A stretch of DNA of 64,000 bases from an uncultured Planctomycetales bacterium. Its GTDB lineage: Bacteria > 4484-113 > JAFGCY01. Shown piece by piece: positions 10,582 through 37,176 of this stretch (position 1 is its first letter; each line of letters starts with the position of its first letter). Made by a program: the position numbers and the translations under genes. The notes beneath the pieces were generated by a model, which worked only from the letters and a program-made list of their open reading frames with translations, ran no database searches and was not told where the DNA came from. The stretch is from contig CAZSSB010000001.1 of assembly GCA_964609245.1 (NCBI GenBank), forward strand, positions 79,836-143,835. Reading direction: 5' to 3'.

Positions 10582-10647
10582 ATTGGGAAACAAAGCGGTC
10601 CACTCTCCTTTGTTGGGTTCTACTCGCAGTTCAGCAAGTGTTGGGCA

Positions 10648-11554: not shown

Positions 11555-12514
11555 CTACTCAGGGAAGAACCAGACCTTCCACGGATACCACATCACGTCG
11601 CTGTCGCCGTCGAAGTCTGTCACTCGTATGGCGACGAGCCGGTGGCCGATCGGGATGTCCGGGAAGCCGAAGTGATCCAAGTAGAGACCGGCCTCCGCGT
11701 GAATCGCAGTATCCGCACTGATGATGCCGGAGTAAGAGAACGCCTCACTCGGGGTCCGGCCAGCTGAGGGATCGAAGTCAAGATTGGCCTCCACGACAAC
11801 GGGCATCAGTAGATCGCTGATCAGGTAATCGACTTCAACGTGGCAGTAGTCGTTCCCGGGGGTGATGACGACCTGATTGATCCCCAGCCGCGGTCCCTGG
11901 ATCCACTTCAGCACGCATTCCTCGGTGCCCGTCAGCATCACCATCACCAGCAGCACGCCTTCCTCGGAGACGTAGGGCTCCAGCGCTTCCAGTTCCAGCA
12001 GGTCGTCCGCCGGCCCGCGGTGCCACTCCCAGCGCCCTTCCTGCCAGTTGGCCACGCCGACCGCCAGGTCGTCCCAGGACTCCGGTGGGGTTTCCCAGCA
12101 GAAGATCACCAGCGGGCGGCCGTCACGGTCATCCAGGTAGAAGTTGTAGACCGCGTAGGCCGGCTTGTAGCTGGGCGGCAGGGCTGCCGGGTCCCAGTCC
12201 GGCCAGAAGACGGCGAAGGTTCCCTCGGCGGCCATTCGATCGTGGGGTAGCGTCGGGTCGAAGTCGGACCCCAGCCGCAGCCGCGAGTAGTGGTTCGCCG
12301 AGACCTGGCGCTGCACGTCCAGCGGCAGCGTAAGGTCGGGCTGCTGCGGACTCGCTGCGGGCGGGGTGCTGTCATCGCCCGCCGGGGCCGGTTGGTCCAG
12401 AGCGCCGCCGCCTCCGCATGCAGCAAGAACCACCGCCGTCAGCACGAGTATCGTCAGCCGCGCCAGTCCCGATCCCCCGATCACCTGGCAGCGGTTCAGC
12501 CGGAAACCGCTCAT
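11555..12514 (-). CDS. Lipoprotein sharing its N-terminal domain with the 18720..20867 paralogue
   Basis: Lipobox LTAVVLAAC. The segment LPHDRMAAEGTFAVFWPDW...ANWQEGRWEWHRGP...LLVMVMLTGTEECVLKWIQ aligns with LPHNRVAAYGTDAVLFPNW...SSWEDGTWRWQTGP...CVVAVMLLGTDTWRLEWLRF of the other gene. Confidence 0.75.
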   Translation of the reverse strand: MSGFRLNRCQVIGGSGLARLTILVLTAVVLAACGGGGALDQPAPAGDDSTPPAASPQQPDLTLPLDVQRQVSANHYSRLRLGSDFDPTLPHDRMAAEGTFAVFWPDWDPAALPPSYKPAYAVYNFYLDDRDGRPLVIFCWETPPESWDDLAVGVANWQEGRWEWHRGPADDLLELEALEPYVSEEGVLLVMVMLTGTEECVLKWIQGPRLGINQVVITPGNDYCHVEVDYLISDLLMPVVVEANLDFDPSAGRTPSEAFSYSGIISADTAIHAEAGLYLDHFGFPDIPIGHRLVAIRVTDFDGDSDVMWYPWKVWFFPE

Positions 12515-14490: not shown

Positions 14491-16452
14491 TTATTGTTCC
14501 GTTCGAAAGATCTTTGAATGCTCAACGTTGTTGCTGTCGCGATAGGTTATCGCGAGAACCACACAGTGATAATTTCCTGACTTGAACGCTTTCATCTTCA
14601 GGCCGCACAAGTACACAGCCCCCGAAACACCCGTCACAGAAACAAACTCTGAGGTTCTCTTGTCAAGCATACCGCTGGCATCTAGCTGGCCGCGGTTTAT
14701 GATGACTGAGCCGGTGTTGAGCCACTGATGATACTCAGCGGAATAGTGGGTCTTCGTTCCATCGTCATTATCTACTGTAGACATCACTATCGCTTTGGTC
14801 TCATTCTCGGGTTCTTCATCGCAGGTATTACGAGAGACAGAAGCAGTCGCCTTGGCTGGATTGTATTCGACTGGGTCGCTCCACGTTGTGCCGCTGGCAT
14901 CATTGCCGTGAGTGTAATACGCGGCGTTATCTGCTTCCCCCGTGTAGTAGTCCAGGTGGTAAGCCAGGCCCGGCACTCCGCCTGCGTCTACCAGCGACAT
15001 CGTGAAATCGATCAGCGCAGTCTCGAAGGAGTCCAATTGAACAGGCGAGTTCCAGGCTGTTCCGGCTGCATCCTGGGCGCTGATGAATCCCAGTGCGGCA
15101 TCATCCGCGCCCACAACGGTATAAGCGATCGCCGGCCGGTCGTCGATTAGCGCTGCTGACAACACGTATCCCGTGTTCACGGATTCCGTTGGCGGCACGA
15201 CTTCATCCGGATCGTCCAGCCAGGTGGTGCCCAGCTCGTCCTCAGCGCGAATGTACATCACGCGCTTGTCAGCTCCGTCGTCTTGGTGAAAAGCGATCGC
15301 GGGGCGGCCGTCGGCTTCCAGCAGGGCCGGGCAGTGGCCCGTGCCCGCCCCATCATCGACCAGCACCGGCGAGCCCCAGCTATCACCGACGGTATCTTCT
15401 GCGCGGACATACCACAATTCCTGCAGACTGCCGGTGAAGCACTGATAGGCAATCGCGGGATTGCCGCCGATTACCGCCATCGAGGCGAAGCTGCCTGGGT
15501 TGTTAGTTGCCGACAGCTCCATCGGAGTTGTCCATTCGGTGGCTTCAGTGTTGGTCGCATGGGCGAACAGCAGGCGGCCATCGTCCCAGCTGTCGGCTTC
15601 ATGGATTACAGCAGCAGCGTATTCACCCAATAGCGCGATGTCATTAATGCCGCCGAACTCACCCGGGTTCTCGAAAGTAAACGCTGGTTCGAGTGCTGGC
15701 GCCAGGGCAACCTGGTCGCTGGCGATGCCCTCAGCGGTGCCGTCCGAGGGACGTACCCAGAATGAGTCTCCAGCTTGATACTCCTCCACCTCATAGCTGA
15801 AGCGCATGCGTACTCCGCTGGCTGTTTCGCCGTCGATGAACTGCACCGTGCCGAGGGGGGTGGCGTTGCCGTTGTCGTCAGTCGCGTCGGTGGGGTAGTC
15901 TTCGGCATCGGCGCTGACGTAGACGTTGTAGCTGGTGACGCTGCAGCCAAAGGCCTGGCCGATCGGCGTGATGTCACTGACGGTGATCATGCCGTCGAAG
16001 TTGCCGTCGGCCATGGAAGCCGCTTCCCAGTCGGGCGAGTCGGTGTCCTTGTCGAAGTGCACGCCGACCGGCGTGAGGTCGTTGACGGTGACGAAGCCGT
16101 CTTGGTTGTAGTCGCCGGTATTGTAGTAATCCCAGCTCAGCGTGCGGGTGTAGTAGTCCCAGCTCAGGGCCGACTGTGAGCGCGGATCCTGGGGCGGTGC
16201 AGCCGTGACTTTGCCTCTGCCGTGCAGGTCGATCAGGACGTCCTTGAGCTGTTGTTTCAGCTTGGCGAACAGCTCGCTGTCGGTGCCCGCGGGCGGCGCC
16301 AGTGCCTCCAGTTCGGCCACTGCCGCTTCGAGTGACGGCCCGCTGTGGCTGGCAGCGGGGGAGGCTTCGACCTCCGACAGCGAGGCGGCGCCATTGCAGG
16401 CCGGCAGAACCAGCCAGCACAGGATGAGGGCAAACAAGGCAGAACGTTGCAT
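14491..16452 (-). CDS. Surface lipoprotein paralogue A: dockerin-like module plus Asp-box-like beta-propeller repeats, with a divergent low-G+C C-terminus
   Basis: Likely start is the ATG at 16452 (MQRSALFALILCWLVLPAC, lipobox). Contains YYNTGDYNQDGFVTVNDLTPVG ... DGNFDGMITVSDITPIGQAF. Repeats of the form G.PAIAY...L.Y.RAeD..G..W. The last ~125 aa are AT-rich in codons and lack the repeat. Confidence 0.85.
   Translation of the reverse strand: MQRSALFALILCWLVLPACNGAASLSEVEASPAASHSGPSLEAAVAELEALAPPAGTDSELFAKLKQQLKDVLIDLHGRGKVTAAPPQDPRSQSALSWDYYTRTLSWDYYNTGDYNQDGFVTVNDLTPVGVHFDKDTDSPDWEAASMADGNFDGMITVSDITPIGQAFGCSVTSYNVYVSADAEDYPTDATDDNGNATPLGTVQFIDGETASGVRMRFSYEVEEYQAGDSFWVRPSDGTAEGIASDQVALAPALEPAFTFENPGEFGGINDIALLGEYAAAVIHEADSWDDGRLLFAHATNTEATEWTTPMELSATNNPGSFASMAVIGGNPAIAYQCFTGSLQELWYVRAEDTVGDSWGSPVLVDDGAGTGHCPALLEADGRPAIAFHQDDGADKRVMYIRAEDELGTTWLDDPDEVVPPTESVNTGYVLSAALIDDRPAIAYTVVGADDAALGFISAQDAAGTAWNSPVQLDSFETALIDFTMSLVDAGGVPGLAYHLDYYTGEADNAAYYTHGNDASGTTWSDPVEYNPAKATASVSRNTCDEEPENETKAIVMSTVDNDDGTKTHYSAEYHQWLNTGSVIINRGQLDASGMLDKRTSEFVSVTGVSGAVYLCGLKMKAFKSGNYHCVVLAITYRDSNNVEHSKIFRTEQ
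15950..16135 (-). other. Dockerin-like double EF-hand module (paralogue A); approximate bounds
   Basis: Two loops fit D-x-[NT]-x-D-G-x-[IV]-x-x-x-D: DYNQDGFVTVND and DGNFDGMITVSD. Each is followed by [IL]TP[IV]G. Confidence 0.6.
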
Positions 16453-16605
16453 AACAGCACTCCTTACCGACGTACTAGCCGGTGGCAAAGCCGCGGCCTG
16501 CAACGCTTCAGCCGCTGAACCTCCGCGGCCCTGCCGCCGGACACACTCCCTCAGTTGTTAGACGGGCCACTTGTGGACACCCACCGCGGTGCGCGGACGC
16601 CCGCG

Positions 16606-18510
16606 CTAGCTGGCGCCGAAAGCAAGTGTTACCAGATTCAGGCTCCAGTTCCCACCGCCGCTATCCGACGGATAGGCGAAATACAGAGTGCCGCCGTCCG
16701 CGCTGCACTTGGGCTGCGCCAGCCGGCGCCAGCCGATGATGTCGCCGCCTTCCCGCATCTCGAAGGTGGTTTCCCAGTCCACGGCGTAGCCGCTGCCTGG
16801 ATCGCTGGCCAGCAGCAGGTGCAGCTGCATGAAATCCGTCCAGTTGCGATAGATCAGGAACAGCGGATCGCTGGCGGCGGGTCCGGTCACGACCGCTTGC
16901 GGCCAGAAGCCCTGGCGGCCCTCGAACTGCGATGTATCCGGCCAGCTTGCACCGTCGGCGTCATCGGCGACGTGGACGAACAGCGCGCCGTTGGGATCCG
17001 AGAACCACATCAGCGGGAGGCCGCCGTTCACCAGCAGGCTGGGGCTCTCGCCGACGTTGACGGATCCCAGATCGAAGATGGTCTGCTCAGCACTCCAGGC
17101 GGTGCCGGCGGCGTCGGTCGCGCGCACATAGCGGAACTCATTGATGTCGGAGGGGTAGTAGCCCACGGCGGGATTGCCGTTCACTTCGGCCAGCATCGGG
17201 TAGATCTGGATGTCCGTCTCCGGGCTGATGTACAGCGAATCACCCCAGGTAGTCCCTGTAGCATCGGTGGCCGTGATGTAGCGCAAGCCGAAGCGACTCT
17301 CGCCCTCACTGGCGCCTTGGGCGCCGAACGCCGCGGCGGGCATGCCGCCGATCAGGCCTTCGGCCAGGTGATCGGGGCTCGTGGTAATGGGGTCTGCCTC
17401 TACCGCGGCATTCCAGGCAGCGCCGCTGGACTCGCTGGCGCTGATGAAGTGCAGGCGGGTGACGAATTGCTCATCGGGCTTCTTGGTGAAGAAGATTGCC
17501 GGACTGCCGTCCGCCAGCACCAGCATGCGGGCTTCCGGGTTGCTCAGCTCATCGGCAACCAGCACGGAGGTTTCGGGCCAGTCGGTGCCAAGGGCGTCAT
17601 TGGCGCGGATGTAGTAGATCGACTCCGTTTCGCCTTCATCGTTGACGTACATGAAGGCGGGATTGCCATTGACCAGTTCCAGGTCGTAGGTTACCCAGAA
17701 GTCGGCGGAGATGCCATCCACCGCGCCCTGGGTCTCGCCGACCGGTGATCCGCCCTCGGCGCGGTTGCTGGCCGTTCCCTCGCTCTCGCCGTCGGTCGGC
17801 CGCACCCAGTAGGCATCACCGGCCTCGGCGCCGGTCACGGAAAAAGCAAACAGCTTGCGATCACTGGCCTCGCCCGTGGCATCGGCGAACGCGACACTGC
17901 CCAGCAGCTCCGCCTCGCCGTTGTCATCGGTCGCGCCATCGGGGTAATCGTCGGGCGAGCTGCTGGCATAGACGTTGTAGCCGGTCACGCTGCGGTCAAA
18001 GGCCTGGCCGATCGGCGTGATGTCGCTGACGGTGATGAAGCCGTCCTGGGTGCCGTCGATGCAGGACAGCGCCGAAGCTGGATCAAACGGTCCTTCCGCA
18101 TCGAAGTTCTGTCCCAGGGGGGTGATGTCGCTGACGGTGACGAATCCATCCTGGTTATAGTCGCCGGTGTTGTAGTAGTACCAGGTCAGGGTGGTTGTGT
18201 CCTGGTTCCACAGCAATGGCGCCTCCGAACGTCCGTCCAGGGGAGGCTCGGATGCCTGCTTGCCGTTGCTCATCCTCGCGGTGAGCACCCTGGCCAACTC
18301 GCGTTTGAGCCCGGCAAACAGCTGTTCATCGACGCCGGCGGGAGTCTCAAGGGATGCCAGTTCGTCGAGCGCGCTATCCAGGGAGCAACCGTCGGCTTCC
18401 GGCGGCGAATCGGTTGACTCGTCTCCGATGACGGCCCCTGGTGACGTGCCGCTGCACGCAGGCAGAAGTAGCAGGCAGCAGGCGAACAACAGACCAGTAA
18501 TGCGCGGCAT
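16606..18510 (-). CDS. Surface lipoprotein paralogue B: dockerin-like module plus Asp-box-like beta-propeller repeats
   Basis: Likely start is the ATG at 18510 (MPRITGLLFACCLLLLPAC). Contains YYNTGDYNQDGFVTVSDITPLGQNF ... DGTQDGFITVSDITPIGQAF, VTGYNVY, and repeats such as GNPAFMY, GSPAIFF, GNPAVGY with RAnDalGtdW / AtDatGttW / AtDaaGtaW. Confidence 0.85.
   Translation of the reverse strand: MPRITGLLFACCLLLLPACSGTSPGAVIGDESTDSPPEADGCSLDSALDELASLETPAGVDEQLFAGLKRELARVLTARMSNGKQASEPPLDGRSEAPLLWNQDTTTLTWYYYNTGDYNQDGFVTVSDITPLGQNFDAEGPFDPASALSCIDGTQDGFITVSDITPIGQAFDRSVTGYNVYASSSPDDYPDGATDDNGEAELLGSVAFADATGEASDRKLFAFSVTGAEAGDAYWVRPTDGESEGTASNRAEGGSPVGETQGAVDGISADFWVTYDLELVNGNPAFMYVNDEGETESIYYIRANDALGTDWPETSVLVADELSNPEARMLVLADGSPAIFFTKKPDEQFVTRLHFISASESSGAAWNAAVEADPITTSPDHLAEGLIGGMPAAAFGAQGASEGESRFGLRYITATDATGTTWGDSLYISPETDIQIYPMLAEVNGNPAVGYYPSDINEFRYVRATDAAGTAWSAEQTIFDLGSVNVGESPSLLVNGGLPLMWFSDPNGALFVHVADDADGASWPDTSQFEGRQGFWPQAVVTGPAASDPLFLIYRNWTDFMQLHLLLASDPGSGYAVDWETTFEMREGGDIIGWRRLAQPKCSADGGTLYFAYPSDSGGGNWSLNLVTLAFGAS
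17995..18185 (-). other. Dockerin-like double EF-hand module (paralogue B); approximate bounds
   Basis: Loops DYNQDGFVTVSD and DGTQDGFITVSD. The nucleotide string tggccgatcggcgtgatgtcgctgacggtgat is shared almost verbatim with the other four modules. Confidence 0.6.
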
Positions 18511-18719
18511 AAGACCACTACCTCCCGCGATCGATCTCGCCACGATTATACCTTCATTCCCATTAGCACCGCCGTCGGTACAGCGCAGCGTATCTGATCT
18601 GCGGTCCGCGAATCGGTGATCTGTCGCGAGCCGGATAGCCCATACCACCGCGCCCTCCGCTGGTGCTGCGCGGGAGTGTGCTGAGCAGCGGGCAGCGGAA
18701 CCACCACGACATCAGCTGA

Positions 18720-20867
18720 TCAGCTGTCCAGATGGGCGTAGCGCAGTTCGTCGTCGTCAGCCTCGTGGTAGCTGACATGGGGCAGGTCATGGCTGTCGAT
18801 CGCGACCGACGGCCACCAGCCGGCACTGCCGTCACTGTCGAGGACCACGGTGGTCCAGCTGCCGCCGCGGTTGGTGGTGTAGAGCAGCTGCCAGCTGTCC
18901 CAGTCCTGGTGCACGATGTGGGCAGCGTCGGTGGAGTCCAGCGCCAGGCAGGTGAAGTAGCCCTCCTTGCTGCTGCTGCTGCTGGCGGTCTCCACGACCC
19001 AGTCGCTGCCGTCGTGCCACGCGTAGCAGAGGTCATACCTGGTGCCGTTCTGGTAGCTGATGTGCGGGCGGTCGAGTGAGTCCAGTTCCACCGAGGAGAA
19101 CATCCCGACGTTGCCGGCCCCGTCCACGATCTGGGGATTGGCGGGCGGGCCGTAGCTGTAGATGTAGTAGAGGAACTGGCCGTTGGCGTCGTAGGTGCTG
19201 ATGCACGGGAGGTCTAACTGGTCGATCTCGAGCGAAACCGTAATCCCGGTGTCACCAGTCCCGTGGTCCCAGTAGTCATAACCGCCACCGCCGTCAGGAT
19301 AGGCGTACTGCATCCAGTTGAATGAGCCGTCGAAGCGGTGGTAGGCGAAATGCGCCACCTCGCTGGAGTCGAGCGCAATCGAAATACCGCCTTCACCGGC
19401 CTTCCAGATCGCCCTGACTTCGGTGATGTCCCAGGAAGTGCCGTTGTGGTAAGCGTACTTGACCCAGCCGTTGTCGTCGTCGAAGTAACCGATGTGGGGG
19501 TTGTCAGCCGAGTCCAGTACCAGCGAGGTGTTGAGCCCGACGTTGCCCGACTCGTCGACCACCTCCGTGTCCCAGCTCCCCGCCGTACAGGTGGCGAACA
19601 GCAGATCACCGAGGAAGTCGTCGTAGTAGCTGATTCGCGGCTGATCGCTGGAGTCCAGCGCGATCGAACTGAAGGCACCATGGCCGATCTGGGTGTCCAC
19701 CACATCGATCACCCACTCCAGCACGCGGACCTCCACCGATGCCGTGTCCGTGGCGCCGTCGTTGTCATGAACGCGAACGGTGGGGTGGTAGGTGCCGGCC
19801 GCGCCGTAGGTATACCAGGGGCTGGCGCCGCCGCCCAGCACCTCGTAGGTGCCGTCACCGTCCCAGTCCCAGTCGAAGCCCTCGATCGTGCCATCACTAT
19901 CCTGGGTGCCGGTCGTGTCGAACCTGACTTCGAGGGGGCCTTCGCCGAGCGCCGGGTCGGCCGCCAGACTGGCTACGGGTGCGTCGTTGACCTTGATCGT
20001 GAGCGCCGTGATCGAGCCCGTGCCGGTGGCGCCTAGGTCATCAGTCACGCGCACCTTCGCCTGATAGCTGCCGGTCGTGCTGTAGACGTGCTGGTCGAAG
20101 GGGATCGCCCCGCTGTCGGCGTCCCAGGTGCCGTCGCCGTCCCAGTCCCACTCGTACTTCACGATGCTGCCGTCGAGGTCGCTGCTGGCGGAAGCGTCGA
20201 AGTCAACCGTCAGCGGCGCCGGGCCGGCCAGCGGGGCGGCGCTGAGCTCGGCCCTGGGCGGGGCATTGGGACCGAAGCGCAGCCACTCAAGGCGCCAGGT
20301 ATCGGTCCCGAGCAGCATCACAGCCACAACGCAGGCGCCGGTCGCCGGCTCGACATAGGGGTCCAGCGTTCCCAGCGGCAGCTCGGTGCCCGCGGGGCCG
20401 GTCTGCCACCGCCAGGTGCCGTCCTCCCAGCTGCTGATGCCGATCCAGAGATCCGGCGGGCTGACGTCAGCCACCTGCCACGAAAGCCACAGGCTTGGGT
20501 CCAGGTCGTAGCCATCGAGCGTGAACCCGTAGATGCAGTAGGAAAGCCCGTCTCGGGCCGCACTGACTCCGGACTCCCAGTTGGGGAACAGCACGGCATC
20601 GGTGCCGTAGGCGGCCACGCGGTTGTGGGGCAGCAGCGGCATGTAATCCGCGCCGGCGCGGACGCGGTCGGCATCGACGTAGGAGACTCCCTTGAGCAGG
20701 TCAGCCGGCGGGGGCAGGACGGGCCCGGTCGGGGCCAGCTGGACCGGGTCCAGCGGCAGGACCTCCGCGACCGGGGTCTGGTCTGCCGCAGTCGGGACCG
20801 TGTCGCTCCCGCAGGAGGGAACAACCAGCAGGCAGCCAGCCATCAGCAAAGCAGTACTACGCAGCAT
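18720..20867 (-). CDS. Surface lipoprotein paralogue F: shared N-terminal domain, two PKD domains, 7 propeller-like repeats
   Basis: MLRSTALLMAGCLLVVPSC (lipobox). The N-domain is paralogous to the 11555..12514 gene. PKD signatures are VKYEWDWDGDGTWD and EGFDWDWDGDGTYE. Seven repeats of the form G..sS[IL]aLDS.D.PhIsY. Confidence 0.88.
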   Translation of the reverse strand: MLRSTALLMAGCLLVVPSCGSDTVPTAADQTPVAEVLPLDPVQLAPTGPVLPPPADLLKGVSYVDADRVRAGADYMPLLPHNRVAAYGTDAVLFPNWESGVSAARDGLSYCIYGFTLDGYDLDPSLWLSWQVADVSPPDLWIGISSWEDGTWRWQTGPAGTELPLGTLDPYVEPATGACVVAVMLLGTDTWRLEWLRFGPNAPPRAELSAAPLAGPAPLTVDFDASASSDLDGSIVKYEWDWDGDGTWDADSGAIPFDQHVYSTTGSYQAKVRVTDDLGATGTGSITALTIKVNDAPVASLAADPALGEGPLEVRFDTTGTQDSDGTIEGFDWDWDGDGTYEVLGGGASPWYTYGAAGTYHPTVRVHDNDGATDTASVEVRVLEWVIDVVDTQIGHGAFSSIALDSSDQPRISYYDDFLGDLLFATCTAGSWDTEVVDESGNVGLNTSLVLDSADNPHIGYFDDDNGWVKYAYHNGTSWDITEVRAIWKAGEGGISIALDSSEVAHFAYHRFDGSFNWMQYAYPDGGGGYDYWDHGTGDTGITVSLEIDQLDLPCISTYDANGQFLYYIYSYGPPANPQIVDGAGNVGMFSSVELDSLDRPHISYQNGTRYDLCYAWHDGSDWVVETASSSSSKEGYFTCLALDSTDAAHIVHQDWDSWQLLYTTNRGGSWTTVVLDSDGSAGWWPSVAIDSHDLPHVSYHEADDDELRYAHLDS
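19730..20260 (-). other. Tandem PKD domains in paralogue F; approximate bounds
   Basis: PLTVDFDASASSDLDGSIVKYEWDWDGDGTWD...YQAKVRVTDDLGATGTGS and PLEVRFDTTGTQDSDGTIEGFDWDWDGDGTYE...YHPTVRVHDNDGATDTASV. Confidence 0.8.
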
Positions 20868-20953
20868 AACACCCCACCTCCGGTGCGCGCTTGGCGGTCA
20901 TTATAGCGTCGCGGGTACCGCGTCGTTCTCAGTGCTGCTCGTGGGGACTGGCG

Positions 20954-22819
20954 CTACTTGGTGCGCTCGTCGAGCTTGCGCATCAGTTTCTCGACCCAGT
21001 ACTTGTCGGGCAGTAGCTCGTCGGGATCCTCGAGGCAGATCATGGTCACTTCGATCGTGTCGCCCGGTGCAAGGCTGCTGGGATCGATGTCGCGCCTGAT
21101 CAGTCCTTCATCCGTCTTGACATGCTCCTCGTACCGCGTGAGTTCCGAGGTGACGATCACCAGCGGATCGGGCAGCTCCGTCTCGCCGTCCTCGATCAGC
21201 ACCGCGCCGCCAAGTGTCACCACGCCCGTGTGCTCAGCGAAGGCGAGCAGTTCCCCTTCGATTTCCAGTTCCCCGCATGAGACCAGATCGCCGGAGCTGA
21301 GAGCCGCGTCGTGTTCGAGCCGCACGTCGCTGATGCCGTCGCGGTCGCTGTCCAGCAGCTCGGCTTCGTCCCCAAAATCACCGTCGAGGTCGGTATCGGT
21401 GCTGACCAGCCCGGTGGCGTGGGCCAGCCGGTTGCGGGTCTTCAGCGCATACCCATCCTCGATCTCCGGCGTCGCCGGATTGTCACCCGGCATCAGCGAG
21501 TCCACGGTCAGCATCGTGAAGTAACCACCATCCGGGTTGGGGCTGAACTCGATCGCGATGTCCAGGTCCGTCGTGCCGAAGGCCGGCAGCCTGACCGGCA
21601 CCGAAGAAATCGTGTAGTGCTCCGCTGACGCCGTGCTGACGGCACGGGTGGATGAGACCGGCCGCGAATCACCGGTGATGAGATCGACGGTCGGCAGATA
21701 GAAGATATCGAGATAGAGCAGCTGCTCGCGTGGCGCGCCGAGAAATACGGTCGCACAGCCCATCGTCCGCGTCGCCAGCGGCAGGTGCGGCACTTCCCAG
21801 CGCTCGGAGCCGATAATCTCGACCGGCTCGATCAGCCGCGAACCGCCCTTGCTGGGCGCATACGGTCCGGGGTTGGTCCCGTTGAGGTCGAAGAGATCCA
21901 GCCCGCTGAGGTCGAGGTTTGCCCGCAGGCTGATGTCGCCGATGATGTCGCCGCTGCCCGAGCCCTCGACGCCGTCCTTGTCGACGGCGACTACCGCCCA
22001 GTCATCGGCCGGCGAACCGGGCAGGACGGCGCTGTAAAGCGGTGGCAGGCCCTCGCGCGGCTGACCGGCCGAGCGCGGCACCGTCGGTTCGCCTGGTGCC
22101 GTGTCCTGGAGTGGCACGCCATTGTGCTTGACCATGTAGCCGGCGATATAGGACCCGTAGTTCTGGCCGATCGGCGTGATATCGGAGACGGTGATCTCGC
22201 CATCGGCGTTGCCGTCGACCCAGTAGGTGCGCTGGGCGGCGGCGTCCGGTGCCGCGCGGTCGTACTCCAGGCCCAGCAGCTGCCCAATGGGCGTCAGATC
22301 CGAGATGCCGACCAGACCGTCGAAATCGTAGTCGCCGGTGTTGGTCTGCGTCCAACTCAGTTCGACTAGGCCGTCGCCCGCCGAGGTGACGGCCAGATCA
22401 CTGATCACGTTGTATGCCCCGACGGGCGGCACGCTCACCAGCCTGCCCACCGCGCTGACCGGCAGCTCGATCGTGACCGGCTGGCCGGCAAGCTCGCTCA
22501 GGCCGACCACGCCCACGTCGAACCCGCCGCCGGCTGGCGCGGCGAGGCCTATGTGCTCTGGAGAACTCAACAGCTGCACGCCGTCCAGCCGCCGTCCATC
22601 CGGCAGGTCCACGTGGGCGAAAACCCCGTCGGCCGTGACAGTGGCAAACGTCAGCTCCAGAGCGCTGCCGCGATCCACCAGGCTGAGCCCGGCGATGTCA
22701 GATCCCGCCAGCGGGCTGAGCGACGGGCTGCGCATCGGCAGTTCCCGATTCGGGCCGCTGCAGCCGGCGATCACCAGCAGCGCCGCCCCCAGCAGGATTG
22801 CGCGTCCGTAAGTACTCAT
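20954..22819 (-). CDS. Surface lipoprotein paralogue D: Ig-like N-domain, dockerin-like module, Asp-rich Ca-binding-like C-terminal region
   Basis: Start is at 22837 or, more likely, the second Met at 22819 (MSTYGRAILLGAALLVIAGC, lipobox), which avoids overlap with the upstream gene stop. Contains LSWTQTNTGDYDFDGLVGISDLTPIGQLL ... DGNADGEITVSDITPIGQNY, and TDTDLDGDFGDEAELLDSDRDGISD. Confidence 0.8.
   Translation of the reverse strand: MSTYGRAILLGAALLVIAGCSGPNRELPMRSPSLSPLAGSDIAGLSLVDRGSALELTFATVTADGVFAHVDLPDGRRLDGVQLLSSPEHIGLAAPAGGGFDVGVVGLSELAGQPVTIELPVSAVGRLVSVPPVGAYNVISDLAVTSAGDGLVELSWTQTNTGDYDFDGLVGISDLTPIGQLLGLEYDRAAPDAAAQRTYWVDGNADGEITVSDITPIGQNYGSYIAGYMVKHNGVPLQDTAPGEPTVPRSAGQPREGLPPLYSAVLPGSPADDWAVVAVDKDGVEGSGSGDIIGDISLRANLDLSGLDLFDLNGTNPGPYAPSKGGSRLIEPVEIIGSERWEVPHLPLATRTMGCATVFLGAPREQLLYLDIFYLPTVDLITGDSRPVSSTRAVSTASAEHYTISSVPVRLPAFGTTDLDIAIEFSPNPDGGYFTMLTVDSLMPGDNPATPEIEDGYALKTRNRLAHATGLVSTDTDLDGDFGDEAELLDSDRDGISDVRLEHDAALSSGDLVSCGELEIEGELLAFAEHTGVVTLGGAVLIEDGETELPDPLVIVTSELTRYEEHVKTDEGLIRRDIDPSSLAPGDTIEVTMICLEDPDELLPDKYWVEKLMRKLDERTK
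22160..22345 (-). other. Dockerin-like double EF-hand module (paralogue D); approximate bounds
   Basis: Loops DYDFDGLVGISD and DGNADGEITVSD, each followed by [IL]TPIGQ. Confidence 0.55.
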
Positions 22820-22820
22820 C

Positions 22821-24353
22821 TTAAAACAGGTCCTCATAGGTCTTGGCTCCCGAGTCCAGGAGACCTGGGTTCTCTATGCAATCCGATATCACGCCGCAAA
22901 GCAGCTTGATGCCCCGTTCGATGCGCTCCGAAGTGTTACGGCTGAAGCTGAGCCTCAGTGCCGGTGCATCGCGGCGATCCGGCATCACGAACGCCGCCGG
23001 CACGAAGTCGACTCCTGCCTGCCGCGCCAGGGTCAGCAATGGCACGGATTTGATCTGCTCGGGCAGCTCCAGCCAGACGCTGAAACCGCCGTGCGGCACC
23101 CGAAAGCGGCAGCCGTCCGGCAGCTCACTGAGCAGCGTGGCACACATCACATCGCGGCGCTGCTTGTAGGCCTTGTTGGCACGTCGCAGATGCCGGGTGA
23201 AATGTCCGCGTTCAATCAGATCGTGCAGCAACACCTGCAGGAAGAAGCTGTCACTCTGGTCCGAACCCGTCTTGGCGCGCAGCAGGGGAACACTGATCGC
23301 GGCCGGACAGGTGATCCAGCCAACGCGCAGCCCCGGCAGGAAGACCTTGCTGAAGGTGCCGATGTGGATCACGTAGCCGCCCTGGTCGAGGCGTTTGAGC
23401 GGCGGATCGACCGGGCCGTCGTAGCGCAGCAGGCGCGCCCAGTCGTCCTCCACCACCGGCACGCGGTGGCTCATCGCAAGGTGCATCAGCCGTTCACGAC
23501 GCTCCGGTGACATGCAGATGCCGGTCGGATTGTGAAAAGTCGGAACCGTGACGATTGCCTTGACCTCATCGCGCTTCAGTATGCCGGCCAGGTAGTCAGT
23601 GTCCATGCCATGGTCGTCGATCGGGATGGGCACGTAGTCTATGTTGCGGGAGATCAGCAGGTTGAGCAGACCGCTGTAGGTGGGTGACTCGATCGCGACG
23701 GCCTGGCCGGGCTTGAGCAGAAAATCCAGCACCAGCGCCAGCGCACGCTGAAAGCCCCCGGTCAGGATGATGTCGTTCTCGCCCTGCGCCATCGGTACGC
23801 CGGCCAGTGCCATCTCTCTCTCGAGATGCTCTACAAGTGGCTGGTAGCCCTGGGGATGGCCGATGTCGAAGAAGAACTGCTCCGGATTCCACAGCATGTT
23901 GGTCGTGGATTGCTTGATCCGGTCGAAGGGGAACAGCTCCGGGTCGGGGTAGGCCTGAGTGAAGCGGATCATCTCGCTGCTGCCCCGGCTGACCGGCATC
24001 ATGAAGAACTCGCTGCGGAAGTCGTAGGGGTCCCACCGCATCGGCGGGTAGTCGCCGAGGCTTGGACCCAACTCATCGTGGGTGCGCAGGTTCACACCGT
24101 TGCCGCCCTGCGGCTGGGCGGCAATGAAGGTGCCGCTGCCCCGCCGCGACTCGACCACACCGTGCGCCGCCAGCTCGTCATAGGCCAGATCAACGGTGTT
24201 CTTGGACACCCCGAGCTCCTCGGCCAGCTGCCGTACGCTGGGCAGGCGTGTGCCAACGGGCAGCAGACCGTCACGGACCAGCGTTTCTATCTGGTCGCGA
24301 ATCTGCTCGTACAGCGGCTCGGTCGCCGCTCTGTTGATCTCGAGGTTCATCAC
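22821..24353 (-). CDS. MocR/PdxR-type regulator: GntR-family wHTH fused to a class-I aminotransferase-like domain
   Basis: N-terminus LYEQIRDQIETLVRDGLLPVGTRLPSVRQLAEELGVSKNTVDLAYDELAAHGVVESRRGSGTFI, followed by a ~380-aa aminotransferase fold (PTFHNPTG, GTFSKVFLPGLRVGW). GTG at 24353 or ATG at 24350. Confidence 0.9.
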   Translation of the reverse strand: MMNLEINRAATEPLYEQIRDQIETLVRDGLLPVGTRLPSVRQLAEELGVSKNTVDLAYDELAAHGVVESRRGSGTFIAAQPQGGNGVNLRTHDELGPSLGDYPPMRWDPYDFRSEFFMMPVSRGSSEMIRFTQAYPDPELFPFDRIKQSTTNMLWNPEQFFFDIGHPQGYQPLVEHLEREMALAGVPMAQGENDIILTGGFQRALALVLDFLLKPGQAVAIESPTYSGLLNLLISRNIDYVPIPIDDHGMDTDYLAGILKRDEVKAIVTVPTFHNPTGICMSPERRERLMHLAMSHRVPVVEDDWARLLRYDGPVDPPLKRLDQGGYVIHIGTFSKVFLPGLRVGWITCPAAISVPLLRAKTGSDQSDSFFLQVLLHDLIERGHFTRHLRRANKAYKQRRDVMCATLLSELPDGCRFRVPHGGFSVWLELPEQIKSVPLLTLARQAGVDFVPAAFVMPDRRDAPALRLSFSRNTSERIERGIKLLCGVISDCIENPGLLDSGAKTYEDLF

Positions 24354-26135: not shown

Positions 26136-28550
26136 CTAGTAGTAGATCGCGAAGTGGATTCCTTCCTGTGAAGCTGCGTTGGTGCTGAAGGCGATCCCGG
26201 GCCGGCCGCCGATGTCCGCCAGCGATGCGTCGGTCTGACCGCAGGCGTGCTCCGAGACCAGTTCGGTGGCGGGCGGCCAGGCGTCGCCGGTTGAATCGAG
26301 GGCCTGCTTGTAGTACAGGTTCTTCAGCCCCAGGCCGTTGTCCGCTCCACCGGCATAGGCCGCCGCGGGCCGCCCGTCGACAACCGCGATGGTGTCGCCG
26401 GTCATCAGGAACTGCAGCGAGTCGATGTGGACGCGGTGCTCGCTGTCCCAACTGGAGCCAGTGGCGTTATCCGCCCGGATGTAGTACAGCGGCCTGACGC
26501 TTTCCGGCAGGAAGTCCTTGTACAGGATCGCCGGCCGGCCGGCAACCTCGATCAGTGAGGGGAACCAGGCGAGCACGATCGTGGTGTCGACGGTGACGCT
26601 GTTCCAGCTGGTACCGGCGGCGTCGCTGGCCCAGCAGTAGGAGATGCACCAGCCGTTGTCCTCGTCCTCGTAGCAGATGCCCGGCGCGCCGTTGATATCC
26701 GCGAGGTCCATCACGCCGAACACCTCGCTGCTGACCAGCGTGGGGTCCGCCCAGCTGATGCCGTCCGGGGCGCTGGCCCGGCGGTAGACGTAGCCGTCCG
26801 GCGGGCCGCTCATAGTCCCGTAGGTCACCGTCGGGTTGCCGTCGATCACCGCCCCGCCGTATGTGGTGAGCATGACACTGATGTCAGCCGCGTGGATCAG
26901 GAATCCCCAGACGTCGCCGTCAGGATCGACGGCGCGGGTGAACGTCAGCCCGCTCGCGGTGTGATAGATCACCGCCGGGTTGTCGTCCGTTTCGACAAAT
27001 ACCAGCCAGTCTTCGAAGTCACTGCAGACCACCTTCGGCGTGTCGGTCCAGCTCTCGCCCAGCGCATCATCGGCGCGGATGAACTGCACTTCGTCGTCGG
27101 CGTGGTTGTAGAACACCACGCCCGGGCGGCCGTTGACGTTCCTGAGGTGGGGGTAATACACCTCTGTGCTGGCGGCTACCGTGTAGACGTGCCATTCCGC
27201 GACAGGCCCACTGAGCAGGATCGTGCACTCGTCGACAGCGGTGGCACCGTCGTTGTCGGTGACGCGGAGCTTCACCGTGAAATTGCCCCCGTGGGTATAG
27301 GTGAAGCTGGCCACCGGCAGGCCCCGCGCCAGCGTTTCCTCGGGCGTGGGACCGTTGTACACGCCGTCGCCGTCAAGGTCCCACTCGTAGTCCACGATGG
27401 TGCCGTCGGGATCTTGGCTCCCCGTGGCGTCGAAATCCGCCATCAATGGTGCATCGCCGGTGGTGGGAACACCCACGAGGTCCGCCACGGGTGGCAGGTT
27501 GCCTTCCTCCGTCACGGTAACAGTCACGTATTCGGTATCCGTCGCGCCGAGGTTGTCCGTGACGCGCACCACGGTGTCGAAGCTGCCCGCGTTCTCGAAG
27601 GTGTGCTGCGCCGTCGGCGTGGCGCCGGTGTCCACCCATTGCCAGCCGTCGCCAGCGCCCGTCCAGTCCCACTCGTATTTGACGACCAGCCCGTCGGGAT
27701 CGTGGCTGAGGCTGGCGTCGAAATCCACCGCCAGCGGCACGTCCCCCTCCTGCGGATCGGCGCTGATGCTGGCCACCGGCGGGATGTTGGCGGCGGCGGG
27801 CAGCTGCACGCGCGAGCTGGGGGTGCCCTCCGCGCTGCCGTCCGTGGGCCGCACCCAGCAGTACAGCTCCGGCTGAGGCTCCGCCAGCATGAAGGTAAAG
27901 CGCTTGCGGTCGGTGACGGTTCCGCCGGCGGCGCTGAACTCCACACTGCCCAGCAGCGTCGCGCCGCCGTTGCCGTCGCTTGCGGCGGCCGGGTAGTCGC
28001 TGGCACTGCTACTACCGTAGACGTTGTAGCCGCTGACCTGGCGACCGAAGCACTGGCCGATCGGCGTGATGTCGCCAATCGTGATGAAGTCGTTCTGGTC
28101 GCCGTCGACGCACGAGACGGCCGTGGCCATGTCGAAGGGTCCCTCGGCATCGAAGTTCTGGCCCAGCGGCGTGATGTCGCTGACGGTGACGAGGCCGTCC
28201 TGGTTGTAGTCGCCAGTGCTGTAGTAGTACCAGCGCAGCGCGGTGCTGCCCTCGTCCCAGCTCAGCGGGGCGCGCGAGCGGTCGTCCCGGGGCGGCTCGG
28301 TGGCGACTTTGCCGCTGCTGAATCGCTCGCTGAGCACGCGGGCCAGTTCTACCTTGAGCTCGTCAAAGAGAGCCGCATCGGTCCCCGGCGGCGATTCGAC
28401 CGCGTCCAGTTCCGCCAGCACGTCATCCAGCTGTTGAATCGTCGCGATCGGTGACGGTGAGTCGCCACCGGCCGGCAGCAGCCTGTGGCCGGAGCACGCG
28501 GGAATCAGTAGCAAAAGGCAGAACGAGGCAGCAAGCGGAATGCGCTTCAT
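26136..28550 (-). CDS. Surface lipoprotein paralogue C: dockerin-like module, two PKD domains, Asp-box-like beta-propeller repeats
   Basis: MKRIPLAASFCLLLLIPAC (lipobox). Contains YYSTGDYNQDGLVTVSDITPLGQNF ... DGDQNDFITIGDITPIGQCF, and PKD signatures VKYEWDWTGAGDGW and VDYEWDLDGDGVY. Repeats include GRPGVVFY, DNPAVIYH, GNPTVTYG, GAPGICYE, GRPAILYK, GRPAAAYA and GRPGIAFS, with A.D..G.SW motifs. Confidence 0.88.
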   Translation of the reverse strand: MKRIPLAASFCLLLLIPACSGHRLLPAGGDSPSPIATIQQLDDVLAELDAVESPPGTDAALFDELKVELARVLSERFSSGKVATEPPRDDRSRAPLSWDEGSTALRWYYYSTGDYNQDGLVTVSDITPLGQNFDAEGPFDMATAVSCVDGDQNDFITIGDITPIGQCFGRQVSGYNVYGSSSASDYPAAASDGNGGATLLGSVEFSAAGGTVTDRKRFTFMLAEPQPELYCWVRPTDGSAEGTPSSRVQLPAAANIPPVASISADPQEGDVPLAVDFDASLSHDPDGLVVKYEWDWTGAGDGWQWVDTGATPTAQHTFENAGSFDTVVRVTDNLGATDTEYVTVTVTEEGNLPPVADLVGVPTTGDAPLMADFDATGSQDPDGTIVDYEWDLDGDGVYNGPTPEETLARGLPVASFTYTHGGNFTVKLRVTDNDGATAVDECTILLSGPVAEWHVYTVAASTEVYYPHLRNVNGRPGVVFYNHADDEVQFIRADDALGESWTDTPKVVCSDFEDWLVFVETDDNPAVIYHTASGLTFTRAVDPDGDVWGFLIHAADISVMLTTYGGAVIDGNPTVTYGTMSGPPDGYVYRRASAPDGISWADPTLVSSEVFGVMDLADINGAPGICYEDEDNGWCISYCWASDAAGTSWNSVTVDTTIVLAWFPSLIEVAGRPAILYKDFLPESVRPLYYIRADNATGSSWDSEHRVHIDSLQFLMTGDTIAVVDGRPAAAYAGGADNGLGLKNLYYKQALDSTGDAWPPATELVSEHACGQTDASLADIGGRPGIAFSTNAASQEGIHFAIYY
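27225..27790 (-). other. Tandem PKD domains in paralogue C; approximate bounds
   Basis: PLAVDFDASLSHDPDGLVVKYEWDW...VVRVTDNLGATDTEYV and PLMADFDATGSQDPDGTIVDYEWDLDGDG...VKLRVTDNDGATAVDE. Confidence 0.8.
28045..28230 (-). other. Dockerin-like double EF-hand module (paralogue C); approximate bounds
   Basis: Loops DYNQDGLVTVSD and DGDQNDFITIGD (the second is slightly degenerate), each followed by ITP[LI]GQ. Confidence 0.55.
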
Positions 28551-28743: not shown

Positions 28744-31444
<2,701 letters not shown>

Positions 31445-35604: not shown

Positions 35605-37176
35605 CTACTCCGCGATGTTGACGATCTGCGGGTCGCCCAGTTCGGGGATGCCGACGGGCACGCCGTAGGTCGCGCCCCACAGATACAGGTAGACCGAGGA
35701 CTGCGGGAAGCGGAAGCACTCCTCGTTGATGCCGTCGTCGATGCAGCGGAACTTGACGTAGCCGACGAAGCCCTCGCCGTCCTTGGGCTCGTCCAGGTCC
35801 TTGCGCTGGGTGGCGTTGAAGCCCACCTCGCGATAGCCGTCGGCGATGTCGCCGACGTCGGCGCCGACGAACAGCGGCGGCTCCAGCAGGTTGGGATGCT
35901 CGGTGGACAGCTCATCGGTGTAGAACGCGACGCTGTCCACGTACTCCACCAGCGTGGAATCGTACTCGAAGCGCACGTTGGCGCTGAACAGCCCCTCGAC
36001 ATTGGCGACCCTGACCCCGATGTAGAACTCGTTGCCAACGTTGAGCAGCTCACTCTTGGGCGCCTGAATCTCGAAGCTGAGCGCCACGCCCGGCGGCACC
36101 ACCATGGTGGTCGCCACGTTGCTGACCGGCCCCTCCAGCGGCGTCTCGCCGGGCTTGCCGACCGGCACCACGTACCAGCCGAAGCTGCCGGGTTCCTCGG
36201 GGGTGTCGAGGAAGGTGTACTGCAGCCGCGTCTTCTGGCCGTTGTAGTCGCGCGGCGCCGACGGCCCCGTGGGCTCGGCGTTGTTGAGCACCTTCTCCCA
36301 GCGGCCGCTATCCGCGGGGTCGGGCTCTTCCTCGGGCTCAGCAAGCGGGGTGCGGTAGACGTTGTACCCCGTGATGAAGCTGAGGAAGCTCTGGCCGATC
36401 GGCGTGATGTCGGCGACGGTGATCAGGCCGTCCTCGTCGCCGTCGACCACCTCGATCAGCGCCCAGTCATCTTCGCCTTCGACGGCGGGCTGATCGAAAT
36501 AGAGCCCCAGCGGGGTGAGATCGTTGACGCCTACCTCACCGTCGAGGTTGTAGTCGCCGTTGTGGCGCTCAAACCAGCTCAGCGTCGCCGAGCTCTCGCC
36601 GTCGTAGATCGCCTGCAGATCCTTGACCTTGGAGCGCGGGACCTGGCTGATCTCCGCCGGTATCTTGGCCACGGGCTCGGCGCCCGCAGTGAAACTGACC
36701 ACCGCCAGCGGCTCGGCCGGATCGAGCAGTGCCCCGCCGGTGCCGGTAACGGCGATCGCCACCAGCCCCCGGCGCACGATCGCCAGGCCCAGTCCGTCGC
36801 CGCGCTTTACCTCGGCGGACGTGACGTGCTCGCGCTCGGGGTCGAACCGCACGTACAGACTGGCGCTGGGCAGCGCCGCGTCGCTGTAGATCGCCAGCGT
36901 ATCGCCGGCGGCCTCGAGGCGCAGCGCCGCCAGCGTCTCGGCGTCAGGCAGGTTGGCTGCGCCGAGCGCGCTGACGCGATAGCCGCCGCTGCTGACAAAC
37001 GGCGCGGTCGCTAGCGCTTCCATCAGTGGCCTGACTTCGATGCTGGGCGCCAGCGGGTTCCAGGCGGCCGCCTTGCCCGCCGTCGGGTCCAGCTCCGGCT
37101 GCTCGAGGCTCAGGGCTCCGCCGCAGCCCGTCAGACACAGTACCAGCACGATCAGTGGGATAATTGCACGCATCAT
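35605..37176 (-). CDS. Surface lipoprotein paralogue E: Ig-like N-domain, dockerin-like module, cohesin-like C-terminal domain
   Basis: Start at the MM pair 37176/37173 (MMRAIIPLIVLVLCLTGC, lipobox). Contains LSWFERHNGDYNLDGEVGVNDLTPLG ... DGDEDGLITVADITPIGQSF and TGYNVY. C-terminal FYIGVRVANVEGLFSANVRFEYDSTLVEYV ... GFVGYVKFRCI. Confidence 0.85.
   Translation of the reverse strand: MMRAIIPLIVLVLCLTGCGGALSLEQPELDPTAGKAAAWNPLAPSIEVRPLMEALATAPFVSSGGYRVSALGAANLPDAETLAALRLEAAGDTLAIYSDAALPSASLYVRFDPEREHVTSAEVKRGDGLGLAIVRRGLVAIAVTGTGGALLDPAEPLAVVSFTAGAEPVAKIPAEISQVPRSKVKDLQAIYDGESSATLSWFERHNGDYNLDGEVGVNDLTPLGLYFDQPAVEGEDDWALIEVVDGDEDGLITVADITPIGQSFLSFITGYNVYRTPLAEPEEEPDPADSGRWEKVLNNAEPTGPSAPRDYNGQKTRLQYTFLDTPEEPGSFGWYVVPVGKPGETPLEGPVSNVATTMVVPPGVALSFEIQAPKSELLNVGNEFYIGVRVANVEGLFSANVRFEYDSTLVEYVDSVAFYTDELSTEHPNLLEPPLFVGADVGDIADGYREVGFNATQRKDLDEPKDGEGFVGYVKFRCIDDGINEECFRFPQSSVYLYLWGATYGVPVGIPELGDPQIVNIAE
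35608..36090 (-). other. Cohesin-like domain of paralogue E; approximate bounds
   Basis: The pattern F.I.V.v.nV.gL.sa.v.f.YD...Le.v, plus a later G.vgyv.F strand, matches my memory of the cohesin beta-sandwich consensus. No HMM search was run. Confidence 0.45.
36390..36565 (-). other. Dockerin-like double EF-hand module (paralogue E); approximate bounds
   Basis: Loops DYNLDGEVGVND and DGDEDGLITVAD, each followed by [LI]TP[LI]G. Confidence 0.55.

Follow-up and report, generated by a model that had tools for sequence, protein, structure and literature searches.

The window analysed here is a 64-kb stretch of DNA (GC content ~67%) from an uncultured Planctomycetales bacterium (assembly GCA_964609245.1, contig CAZSSB010000001.1, positions 79,836 to 143,835), which encodes a family of modular lipoproteins. 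An earlier note, made from the letters of this DNA, described seven members of the family, here named genes A to G, and all seven open reading frames (ORFs) were found on the minus strand where it had placed them. Five of the proteins (A, B, D, F and G) carry a dockerin that appears to be embedded in a fibronectin-type (Fn3) domain, and two proteins of the window, G being one of them, carry a predicted cohesin. The cohesin-dockerin pair is the textbook case of programmable extracellular assembly, the mechanism of which is understood only in cellulosomes and a few toxin complexes, and the numerous non-cellulosomal cohesins and dockerins of genomes remain functionally opaque. The features of the window are collected in Table 1.

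The note had described a double-loop signature, likened to the calcium loops of dockerins, in five proteins. This signature was recovered in A, B, D, F and G and was absent from C and E. The segment is ~55 residues long, internally duplicated, and contains two Ca2+ loops. A profile (A2) was built from 21 family modules and searched against all PDB sequences. It matched solved dockerins over both loops with E-values of 7e-6 to 1e-3 (4fl4_A 6.7e-6, 2y3n_B 5.5e-5, as well as the Xyn10B dockerin 2ccl_B/1ohz_B and CelD), and calmodulins appeared only at E=0.009 or weaker. Relatives also exceeded the gathering score of Pfam Dockerin_1 (PF00404), 22.9 bits, namely P0143 (44.2 bits) and L022, an ORF of the metagenome-assembled genome (MAG) 4484_113 (25.7 bits). 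Dockerin_1 was matched by 9 of the 64 family representatives at E<=1e-5 and by 7 of the 39 G orthologues at E<=0.01 (best 4.9e-6). As the family profile met solved dockerins before calmodulins and relatives passed the Dockerin_1 cut-off, the double-loop segment was identified as a dockerin. The segments thus scored against dockerin models, and the family did not coincide with a known enzyme class.

The composition of the loops agreed with this identification. In both loops, 25-30 of the 30 family members had D, N/D, D/N and D at positions 1, 3, 5 and 12, the counts being D30, N18/D12, D19/N11 and D30 for loop 1 and D29, D13/N12, D14/N13 and D30 for loop 2. Position 12 was invariably Asp in both loops, which is the habit of dockerins, classical EF-hands having Glu at this position. 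Within each of the five window proteins, 9-16 of 21 residues were identical between the two halves of the dockerin, which are therefore considered to be duplicates. The AlphaFold2 (AF2) models of B and G presented three helices in the dockerin segment.

The dockerin is predicted to be inserted in the B-C loop of an Fn3 domain, a topology that the earlier note did not contain. The flanks of the module read '...DL.......TL.W' before the dockerin and 'GYNVY....' and 'YWVRP.DG..EG..S' after it. The dockerin was deleted in silico from 30 family members, and the resulting profile (A5), searched against PDB, matched fibronectin Fn3 domains (6xax_B, 1.3e-8) and, from end to end, the consensus domain FN3con (4u3h_A, 1.7e-4). 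The alignments crossed the deletion junction without a break ('LsW | ..vtGYrV'), and single excised sequences gave weak fn3 matches spanning the junction (15-19 bits against a threshold of 25 for Pfam PF00041). The secondary structure assigned to the AF2 models of B and G consisted of two strands, three helices and, after these, the rest of the sandwich strands (four were assigned in either model). The insertion point was placed in the B-C loop on account of the junction-crossing alignments and of this order of strands and helices, so that the nested topology is one read from sequence profiles and DSSP strings.

Cohesins, which the earlier note had overlooked, are also predicted in the window, in G and in a second ORF, 60532-62505. 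More than 50 orthologues of G were identified (~525 aa, 40-84% identity), and Pfam Cohesin (PF00963) was detected in 35 of 39 of them at E<=0.01, with a best E-value of 7.3e-12. In the AF2 model of G, the predicted local distance difference test score (pLDDT) was 89.2 and the predicted template modelling score (pTM) 0.86. A Foldseek search of this model against PDB returned type I and type II cohesins with a probability of 1.00 and target template modelling (TM) scores of up to 0.74; 5nrm_A, 1aoh, 2ccl_A, 4uyq_A, 3l8q and 2xdh, a non-cellulosomal cohesin of A. fulgidus, were among these matches. The top match was a cohesin dyad aligned over ~500 columns, so that the N-terminal sandwich of G might be a second cohesin. 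This sandwich showed no sequence relation to the C-terminal cohesin (hhalign probability 0.1), however, and the profile of this N-terminal domain found no match among PDB sequences; the same domain recurs before the module in other proteins. The protein of ORF 60532-62505 passed the Pfam threshold for its cohesin (26.8 bits, gathering 24.1) and scored 32.7 bits for FecR and 28.3 bits for TSP3_bac. Its N-terminal part bears a weak NCBIfam likeness to the Leptospira adhesins LipL45 and Lsa33, and a gene for a porin-like outer-membrane barrel (weak Porin_4 and MtrB_PioB matches) lies 33 nt upstream. No multi-cohesin scaffoldin pattern was seen, as one cohesin was confirmed in G and no carbohydrate-binding module (CBM) was detected in the window proteins or in the G orthologues.

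Table 1. Features of the 64-kb window. Coordinates are nucleotide positions in the window unless marked aa; products and parts are as predicted.
Feature	Coordinates	Strand	Product	Parts, in order	Module (E-value)	Dockerin	20-nt string	Other coordinates
Gene A	14491..16452	-	653-aa lipoprotein	lipobox, disordered tether, helical hairpin, Fn3-nested dockerin, propeller (4 clear blades), low-GC C-terminal tail	15706-16200 (5e-61)	15958-16116	15956-15975	propeller ~14833-15660; lipobox codons 16398-16409
Gene B	16606..18510	-	634-aa lipoprotein	helical hairpin (aa 44-80), Fn3-nested dockerin, 7-bladed beta-propeller (final two blades degenerate)	17755-18249 (2.5e-64)	18007-18165	18005-18024	propeller 16609-17721; lipobox codons 18456-18467
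Gene C	18720..20867	-	715-aa lipoprotein, without dockerin	N-terminal domain common with E, two PKD, propeller repeats				PKD 19722-20267; propeller repeats 18723-19712; lipobox codons 20811-20822
Gene D	20954..22819	-	621-aa lipoprotein	N-terminal beta-rich domain, Fn3-nested dockerin, ~320-aa C-terminal region	21914-22420 (1e-40)	22166-22336	22164-22183	
Gene E	11555..12514	-	319-aa lipoprotein, without dockerin	C-type N-terminal domain only				
Gene F	26136..28550	-	804-aa lipoprotein	helical hairpin, Fn3-nested dockerin, two PKD, 7-repeat propeller	27804-28298 (2.5e-63)	28056-28214	28054-28073	PKD 27216-27788; propeller 26139-27203; lipobox codons 28496-28507
Gene G	35605..37176	-	523-aa conserved lipoprotein	N-terminal beta-sandwich (aa 40-175), Fn3-nested dockerin, C-terminal cohesin (aa 360-523)	36106-36642	36394-36558	36392-36411	cohesin 35608-36099
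Second cohesin ORF	60532..62505	+	657-aa secreted protein	signal peptide, FecR, bacterial TSP3 repeat, C-terminal cohesin (aa 520-620)				cohesin 62089-62391
Lipobox ORF	2370-2918	-						
Secreted protein	10648-11232		194 aa					
MocR-type regulator	22821-24353	-		GntR helix-turn-helix, class I/II aminotransferase				
Trp/Tyr-rich lipoprotein	24888-26066	+	392 aa					
Fur-family regulator	28759-29202	+						
katG	29252-31444	+	catalase-peroxidase					
All-helical ORF	38656-44058	-	1800 aa					
flgE	45096-47504		flagellar hook protein, 802 aa					
FliK-like ORF	48660-50717							
Small lipobox protein	51529-51882	-	115-117 aa	single CarboxypepD_reg/SdrD_B-like prealbumin-fold domain				
Small lipobox protein	54407-54754	+	115-117 aa	single CarboxypepD_reg/SdrD_B-like prealbumin-fold domain				
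Porin-like barrel gene	58690-60498	+						

A predicted signal peptide, closed by a lipobox Cys, opens each of the proteins A to G. The box is canonical ([LVI][ASTVI][GAS]-C) in D (IAGC), E (LAAC) and G (LTGC), and it has Pro at position -2 in A, B and F (LPAC) and in C (VPSC); the codons of the latter four are given in Table 1. Pro at this position is unusual for substrates of Lgt and LspA and is barred by the PROSITE rule. Orthologues of A, B, C and F from other MAGs presented canonical boxes at the aligned Cys. A count of at least eleven lipoprotein genes in the 64 kb, made before, was borne out by a relaxed lipobox scan, which retained 11 credible ORFs: genes A to G, the ORF at 2370-2918, the Trp/Tyr-rich lipoprotein and the two small lipobox proteins.

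The domain ahead of the module is variable. The helical leader that the earlier note had listed among the modules of the family held for A, B and F, where it forms a helical hairpin (helices 44-53 and 62-80 in the model of B, pLDDT >90), and was not found in the other members; D and G have a beta-rich domain in its place. The N-terminal domains of C and E share 34% identity over 206 aa (E=7e-30) and had no match in Pfam, PDB or PHROGs, and these two proteins are related to the other members only via common cargo modules. The ~320-aa C-terminal region of D contains TSP3-like D-x-D-x-D-G motifs. Neither Pfam nor NCBIfam recognised it, a profile built from 12 orthologues matched nothing in PDB, and none of ~14 D orthologues had a Pfam match in the corresponding region.

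Cargo domains follow the module. Tandem PKD pairs in two proteins were confirmed far above the Pfam thresholds (PF18911/PF00801; PKD_4, 91.8 bits in C and 87.2 bits in F, with two stretches in each). The repeats of ~45-50 aa also proved real, with seven in F, five clear and two degenerate in B, four clear in A and seven in C; those of C (~47 aa) form a second subtype that differs from that of A, B and F. The repeats had been likened to Asp-box propeller blades with one extra residue. This reading held in part, as they point to a beta-propeller with an A-x-D-x-x-G-T-x-W turn, one residue longer than the Asp-box pattern S-x-D-x-G-x-T-W. The BNR models did not recognise that pattern in A, B and F, which had no Pfam BNR match, and the fold was closer to seven-bladed lectins than to six-bladed sialidases. 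In the Foldseek search of the B model (pLDDT 78.8), the best matches of the propeller were the seven-bladed PLL/PHL lectins (E=3e-10 to 6e-8, TM 0.59-0.70), and the number of seven blades was inferred from the predicted strand pattern together with the repeats. The same propeller type was found in proteins secreted by the type IX secretion system (T9SS; Por_Secre_tail) and in DUF4959 proteins of Bacteroidota, Verrucomicrobiota and Chloroflexota.

These results bear on the possibility of a carbohydrate-active enzyme complex, a true analogue of the cellulosome in which dockerins deliver propellers that act as hydrolases of the sialidase, glycoside hydrolase family 145 (GH145) or GH43 type. The propeller matches listed by Foldseek did include sialidases, a pseudaminidase, GH145 (BT3686) and enzymes of GH32/43, C gave a weak BNR_4 match (16.8 bits against a threshold of 27.3) and some homologues matched BNR_2. 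However, the enzymes matched the B propeller with lower TM scores (sialidases ~0.5, GH145 0.52-0.60, GH32/43 0.28-0.44) than the non-enzymatic lectins. Across 32 propeller homologues, only the repeated G/P/W blade columns were conserved at >=90%; no Arg triad, no conserved acid pair, and no conserved Arg, Tyr, Glu or Asp outside the blade repeat was found, and no FRIP motif was present. A Pfam census of 9 relatives and the 64 family representatives recovered PKD (28/64), fn3, several propeller types, Ig/cadherin domains and one cohesin, and no hydrolase or protease domain. Pfam and NCBIfam likewise yielded no catalytic domain in the window proteins, and no domain of the carbohydrate-active enzyme type in these proteins or the 73 relatives. 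An enzyme complex is thus very improbable, and the cargo is predicted to be non-catalytic. The description of the family as unannotated, lipobox-bearing and non-enzymatic was upheld.

The family is large and widespread. Among 1.84 billion representatives, the full module profile matched 2,712, 1,949 and 685 representative clusters at E<=1e-3, 1e-10 and 1e-30, respectively. Some relatives contain 2-4 modules per protein, and most of the N-terminally complete members have a lipobox. The source annotations read 'hypothetical' or 'PKD domain-containing', and NCBIfam contains no model for the family. A search of GTDB species genomes with the G profile identified 49 loci in ~21 MAGs, which their depositors had labelled 'bacterium', 'Planctomycetales bacterium' or 'UBP7' and which included a complete 4.1-Mb MAG (CP060262.1), in which at least eight module genes were seen at three loci. 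UBP7 ('Ca. Bimafiota') is listed in a review with genomes of 0.83-1.39 Mb and 36-53% GC, values that do not fit the present lineage with its ~67% GC and its complete MAG of 4.1 Mb, and the lineage was therefore given no phylum name. Tandem arrays of 2-4 module genes were common in the MAGs of the relatives. Three loci (L050, L051 and L053, from MAGs CP060262.1, HKST-UBA03 and HKST-UBA01) presented 3-4 consecutive paralogues of ~1140 aa, in each of which four PKD domains come after the nested dockerin. A longer linker separates the two halves of this dockerin, and the profile matches it as two separate parts.

Co-linear orthologues from other MAGs showed identities of 58% for B, 62% for D, 50% over the full length for F (P0005), and up to 84% for G, whereas the paralogues were only 26-38% identical among themselves, a level at which synonymous sites are saturated. 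The orthologues of B, D, F and G (50-84%) are therefore closer than the paralogues, which indicates an ancient and maintained expansion and does not support the 'diversifying' repertoire proposed earlier. A phage origin was rejected, as none of the seven proteins matched PHROGs.

The near-verbatim recurrence of an encoding string in all five dockerin genes, noted before, was also confirmed. The 20-nt string TGGCCGATCGGCGTGATRTC occurred with zero mismatches in exactly A, B, D, F and G, against an expectation of 0.03, and an extra copy with two mismatches in F corresponds to the first dockerin repeat. In the second dockerin repeat (DITPIGQ), the five paralogues use the same codons, including the minority Thr codon ACG, which has a chance of ~1e-4 under the codon usage of the window, whereas the first repeat encodes a near-identical peptide with varied codons. 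Codon bias alone does not fully explain this identity. Within the string lies a perfect 10-nt palindrome, GCCGATCGGC, which the rest of the window lacks, and a 17-mer of the string recurred without mismatch in certain distant orthologues of G (L009, L011, L012 and L013). Recent gene conversion was rejected as the cause of the shared string, given that the modules of A and B are only 76% identical at the DNA level and have no long identical tract.

A comparison with a near-identical strain (L054/L055/L056) showed 99.7% identity over 7.6 kb with 21 single-nucleotide polymorphisms (SNPs), eight of which fall within 25 nt of gene A (15853-15877, codons 192-200; 3576-3600 in L054). They change DDNGNATPLG to EDNGSADLLG, a difference of four residues in a single loop of the Fn3 domain, and the remaining 645 residues do not differ. 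The cluster resembles a micro-conversion or a hotspot of mutation, and no exact donor for it was found among the window paralogues. Two low-GC stretches were also observed. One (14500-14799, 0.49 against ~0.67) is the 3' end of gene A, in which an unrelated Lys/Asn-rich tail replaces propeller repeats, and the other (10300-11200, 0.50-0.55) covers the 194-aa secreted protein, which Pfam did not recognise; both may stem from recent acquisition or replacement.

Directly upstream of the D-C-B-A array, and co-directional with it, lies a MocR-type regulator, which may control the array; an alternative upstream start of D (22837) would make D overlap this ORF. A scan of the array for promoters and terminators gave counts at the level of shuffled sequence, and no Rfam family and no tRNA were found within the window. 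Between D and F, but on the other strand, is the gene of the Trp/Tyr-rich lipoprotein, which had no match in Pfam or NCBIfam. Between F and G, the Fur-family regulator stands immediately upstream of katG, the two forming a PerR-like oxidative-stress pair. The all-helical ORF is rich in Ala, Leu and Glu, resembles tetratricopeptide repeats by eye and lies upstream of flgE, which is unusually long with a large insert between the D1 and D2 domains; a FliK-like ORF is also present. The prealbumin-fold domains of the two small lipobox proteins scored below the Pfam thresholds.

Taken together, the locus suggests a non-cellulosomal cohesin-dockerin assembly of lipoprotein-based binding proteins of the cell envelope, a reading to which we give an even chance of being right. 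A, B, D, F and G would each be tethered by the N-terminal lipid anchor and a disordered linker, and each would present one composite module, an Fn3 domain with its B-C loop replaced by a two-calcium dockerin. The variable cargo after it would be a propeller, alone or together with a PKD pair (A, B and F), the C-terminal domain of D, or the cohesin of G. The dockerins would plug, in a Ca2+-dependent manner, into the cohesins of G and/or of ORF 60532-62505, and binding modules would in this way be gathered into multi-protein assemblies facing outwards on the envelope. As a protein with a plug as well as a socket, G would act as an adaptor and could form chains; it is the candidate adaptor or anchor. 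The result would be a multivalent form of binding, with glycans as the probable ligands, for adhesion or substrate capture.

Several observations weigh against this assembly. A and B scored 17.1 and 15.2 bits, below the Dockerin_1 threshold, and D, F and G had no match at E<=0.1. Likewise, G itself scored 19.8 bits for Pfam Cohesin, below the gathering score. The high pTM of G might reflect packing of its cohesin against its dockerin within the same molecule. Sockets are scarce in comparison with plugs, with a Pfam cohesin in only 1 of the 64 representatives, and G orthologues were detected in ~10 of the ~21 module-bearing MAG species, a lower bound, as the scan relied on G-specific peptide patterns. 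Moreover, the D-I-T-P-I-G-Q helix face is near-invariant across paralogues and lineages, which fits a shared partner or, equally well, structural packing against the host Fn3 domain. Lastly, a diderm may also direct its lipoproteins towards the periplasm.

Two of these observations lend weight to a different reading, in which the proteins are independent lipoprotein lectins or adhesins, the insert serves the Fn3 stalk only as a structural element stabilised by Ca2+, or as a Ca2+ sensor, and binds no cohesin, and the cohesin-fold domains of G and ORF 60532-62505 have other ligands. The TPIGQ face is almost invariant even in very divergent members, as would be the case for an intramolecular packing surface, and plugs far outnumber detectable sockets. 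Many dockerin-like repeats outside cellulosomes lack a known partner, which also counts for this reading. However, a full two-fold duplication with both Ca2+ loops exceeds the needs of a single stabilising site. Furthermore, cohesin and nested dockerin co-occur in one conserved family (that of G), a second cohesin gene is present within the same 64 kb, and some relatives carry several modules. We therefore regard independent lectins as a real possibility, yet a somewhat unlikely one.

The orientation of the proteins admits a further reading, that of periplasm-facing envelope lipoproteins comparable to the BamB/PQQ-like propeller lipoproteins, with roles in outer-membrane biogenesis, transport or sensing and with cohesin-dockerin contacts beneath the outer membrane. 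PQQ_2/BamB-type propellers do occur as cargo in some relatives, and the FecR domain of ORF 60532-62505 and its adjoining porin-like gene are consistent with such a setting. On the other hand, cargo of PKD, cadherin-like, Ig and lectin-like propeller domains is what extracellular proteins typically carry, the propeller module also occurs in T9SS-secreted proteins of Bacteroidota, and the many paralogues per genome are unlike single-copy biogenesis factors. A periplasmic location of the whole system is hence quite improbable.

An extended form of the cohesin-dockerin assembly may be envisaged, although we consider it speculative and unlikely in its full extent. In this lipid-anchored, enzyme-free 'lectinosome', G would polymerise head-to-tail, or would bridge to the FecR-TSP3-cohesin protein at the outer-membrane barrel, giving a Ca2+-dependent scaffold on the cell surface of an uncultured phylum-level lineage, into which A, B, D, F and their many genomic paralogues would plug as interchangeable propeller/PKD lectins. 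If true, it would represent a second, independent use of the assembly principle of the cellulosome, serving multivalent adhesion or the capture of prey or particles instead of catalysis, and the nesting of a dockerin in Fn3 would be a domain topology not described before.

The presence of cohesins in the same window turns a general 'adhesion repertoire' into a specific and testable assembly mechanism. The locus offers a compact case, in which a composite module that marks ~2,700 unannotated clusters is combined with a consistent lipid anchor, predicted non-catalytic, lectin-like cargo and a conserved candidate cohesin partner. Should the pairing be true, it would reveal the way in which surface binding proteins are organised in an uncultured lineage, designer scaffolds would gain a new dockerin topology, and annotation pipelines would obtain a model for a large family of 'hypothetical proteins'.

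Dockerin, cohesin, Fn3, PKD and beta-propeller are known families, and non-cellulosomal cohesin and dockerin proteins are known as well. Our search of the literature and databases found no description of the fixed Fn3-nested dockerin, of its systematic lipoprotein anchoring, of the propeller-lectin cargo or of the conserved cohesin-plus-dockerin lipoprotein. The clostridial type I pairs (C. thermocellum Xyn10B-CipA, 1ohz/2ccl) share with the window proteins the duplicated segment of ~22 residues, made of a 12-residue Ca2+ loop and a helix; the family profile aligns over both loops, and the predicted cohesin fold of G matches 1aoh and 2ccl_A. In contrast to the C-terminal clostridial dockerins, the dockerin here is predicted to be internal, in the B-C loop of Fn3, and its helix motif is D-I-T-P-I-G-Q-N-F with a conserved Pro. 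Furthermore, the clostridial carriers are secreted enzymes of Firmicutes, whereas those of the window are lipoproteins of a probable diderm with predicted non-catalytic cargo. Compared with the cellulosome, the system shows no multi-cohesin scaffoldin and no CBM, and the dockerin-bearing subunits are predicted not to be carbohydrate-active enzymes. The type II XDoc dyads (4u3s, 4wi0 and 5m0y) likewise couple an Ig-like beta-sandwich to a dockerin, presumably stabilising it, and 4u3s_B and 4wi0_B were among the matches of the dockerin profile; their modules stand in tandem, whereas the dockerin here is predicted to interrupt the sandwich between strands B and C.

The B propeller is predicted to resemble the Photorhabdus PLL/PHL lectins (5c9l, 6rgg and 5mxe), which have seven blades, lack enzymatic activity and bind sugars. 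It is only 10-14% identical to them and has its own blade motif (G-x-P-A-I-x-Y ... L-x-Y-V-R-A-x-D-x-x-G-T-x-W). PLL/PHL are soluble fucose lectins, whereas the propellers here are lipoprotein cargo that is lectin-like by predicted fold alone. In Clostridium perfringens, the FIVAR-dockerin of the NanJ sialidase is reported to bind the cohesin of mu-toxin (Adams et al. 2008), and these toxin complexes also use cohesin-dockerin pairing outside cellulosomes in proteins with sialidase-fold propellers. They are, however, secreted and active glycoside hydrolases of a Gram-positive pathogen, whereas the window proteins are predicted to be lipid-anchored and no catalytic residues were found in their propellers.

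Cohesin and dockerin proteins with Ig, fibronectin or PKD-type domains have also been read as cell-cell or matrix adhesins in anaerobic methanotrophic (ANME) archaea and their sulfate-reducing partners, in whose consortia they are highly expressed (PMC10553843). Those adhesins belong to other lineages, and the available part of that study does not describe a nested Fn3-dockerin, lipoprotein anchoring or propeller cargo (PMC10553843). The wider group of non-cellulosomal proteins, such as that of A. fulgidus (2xdh), shares with the present family a place outside cellulose degradation and, in some cases, the union of both modules in one polypeptide. A survey of this group was reportedly given by Peer et al. 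in 2009. Relative to its other members, the family described here is distinguished by its large size and typical association with one lineage, a fixed composite module, lipid anchoring, tandem arrays and a single conserved lipoprotein that carries a predicted cohesin together with a dockerin.

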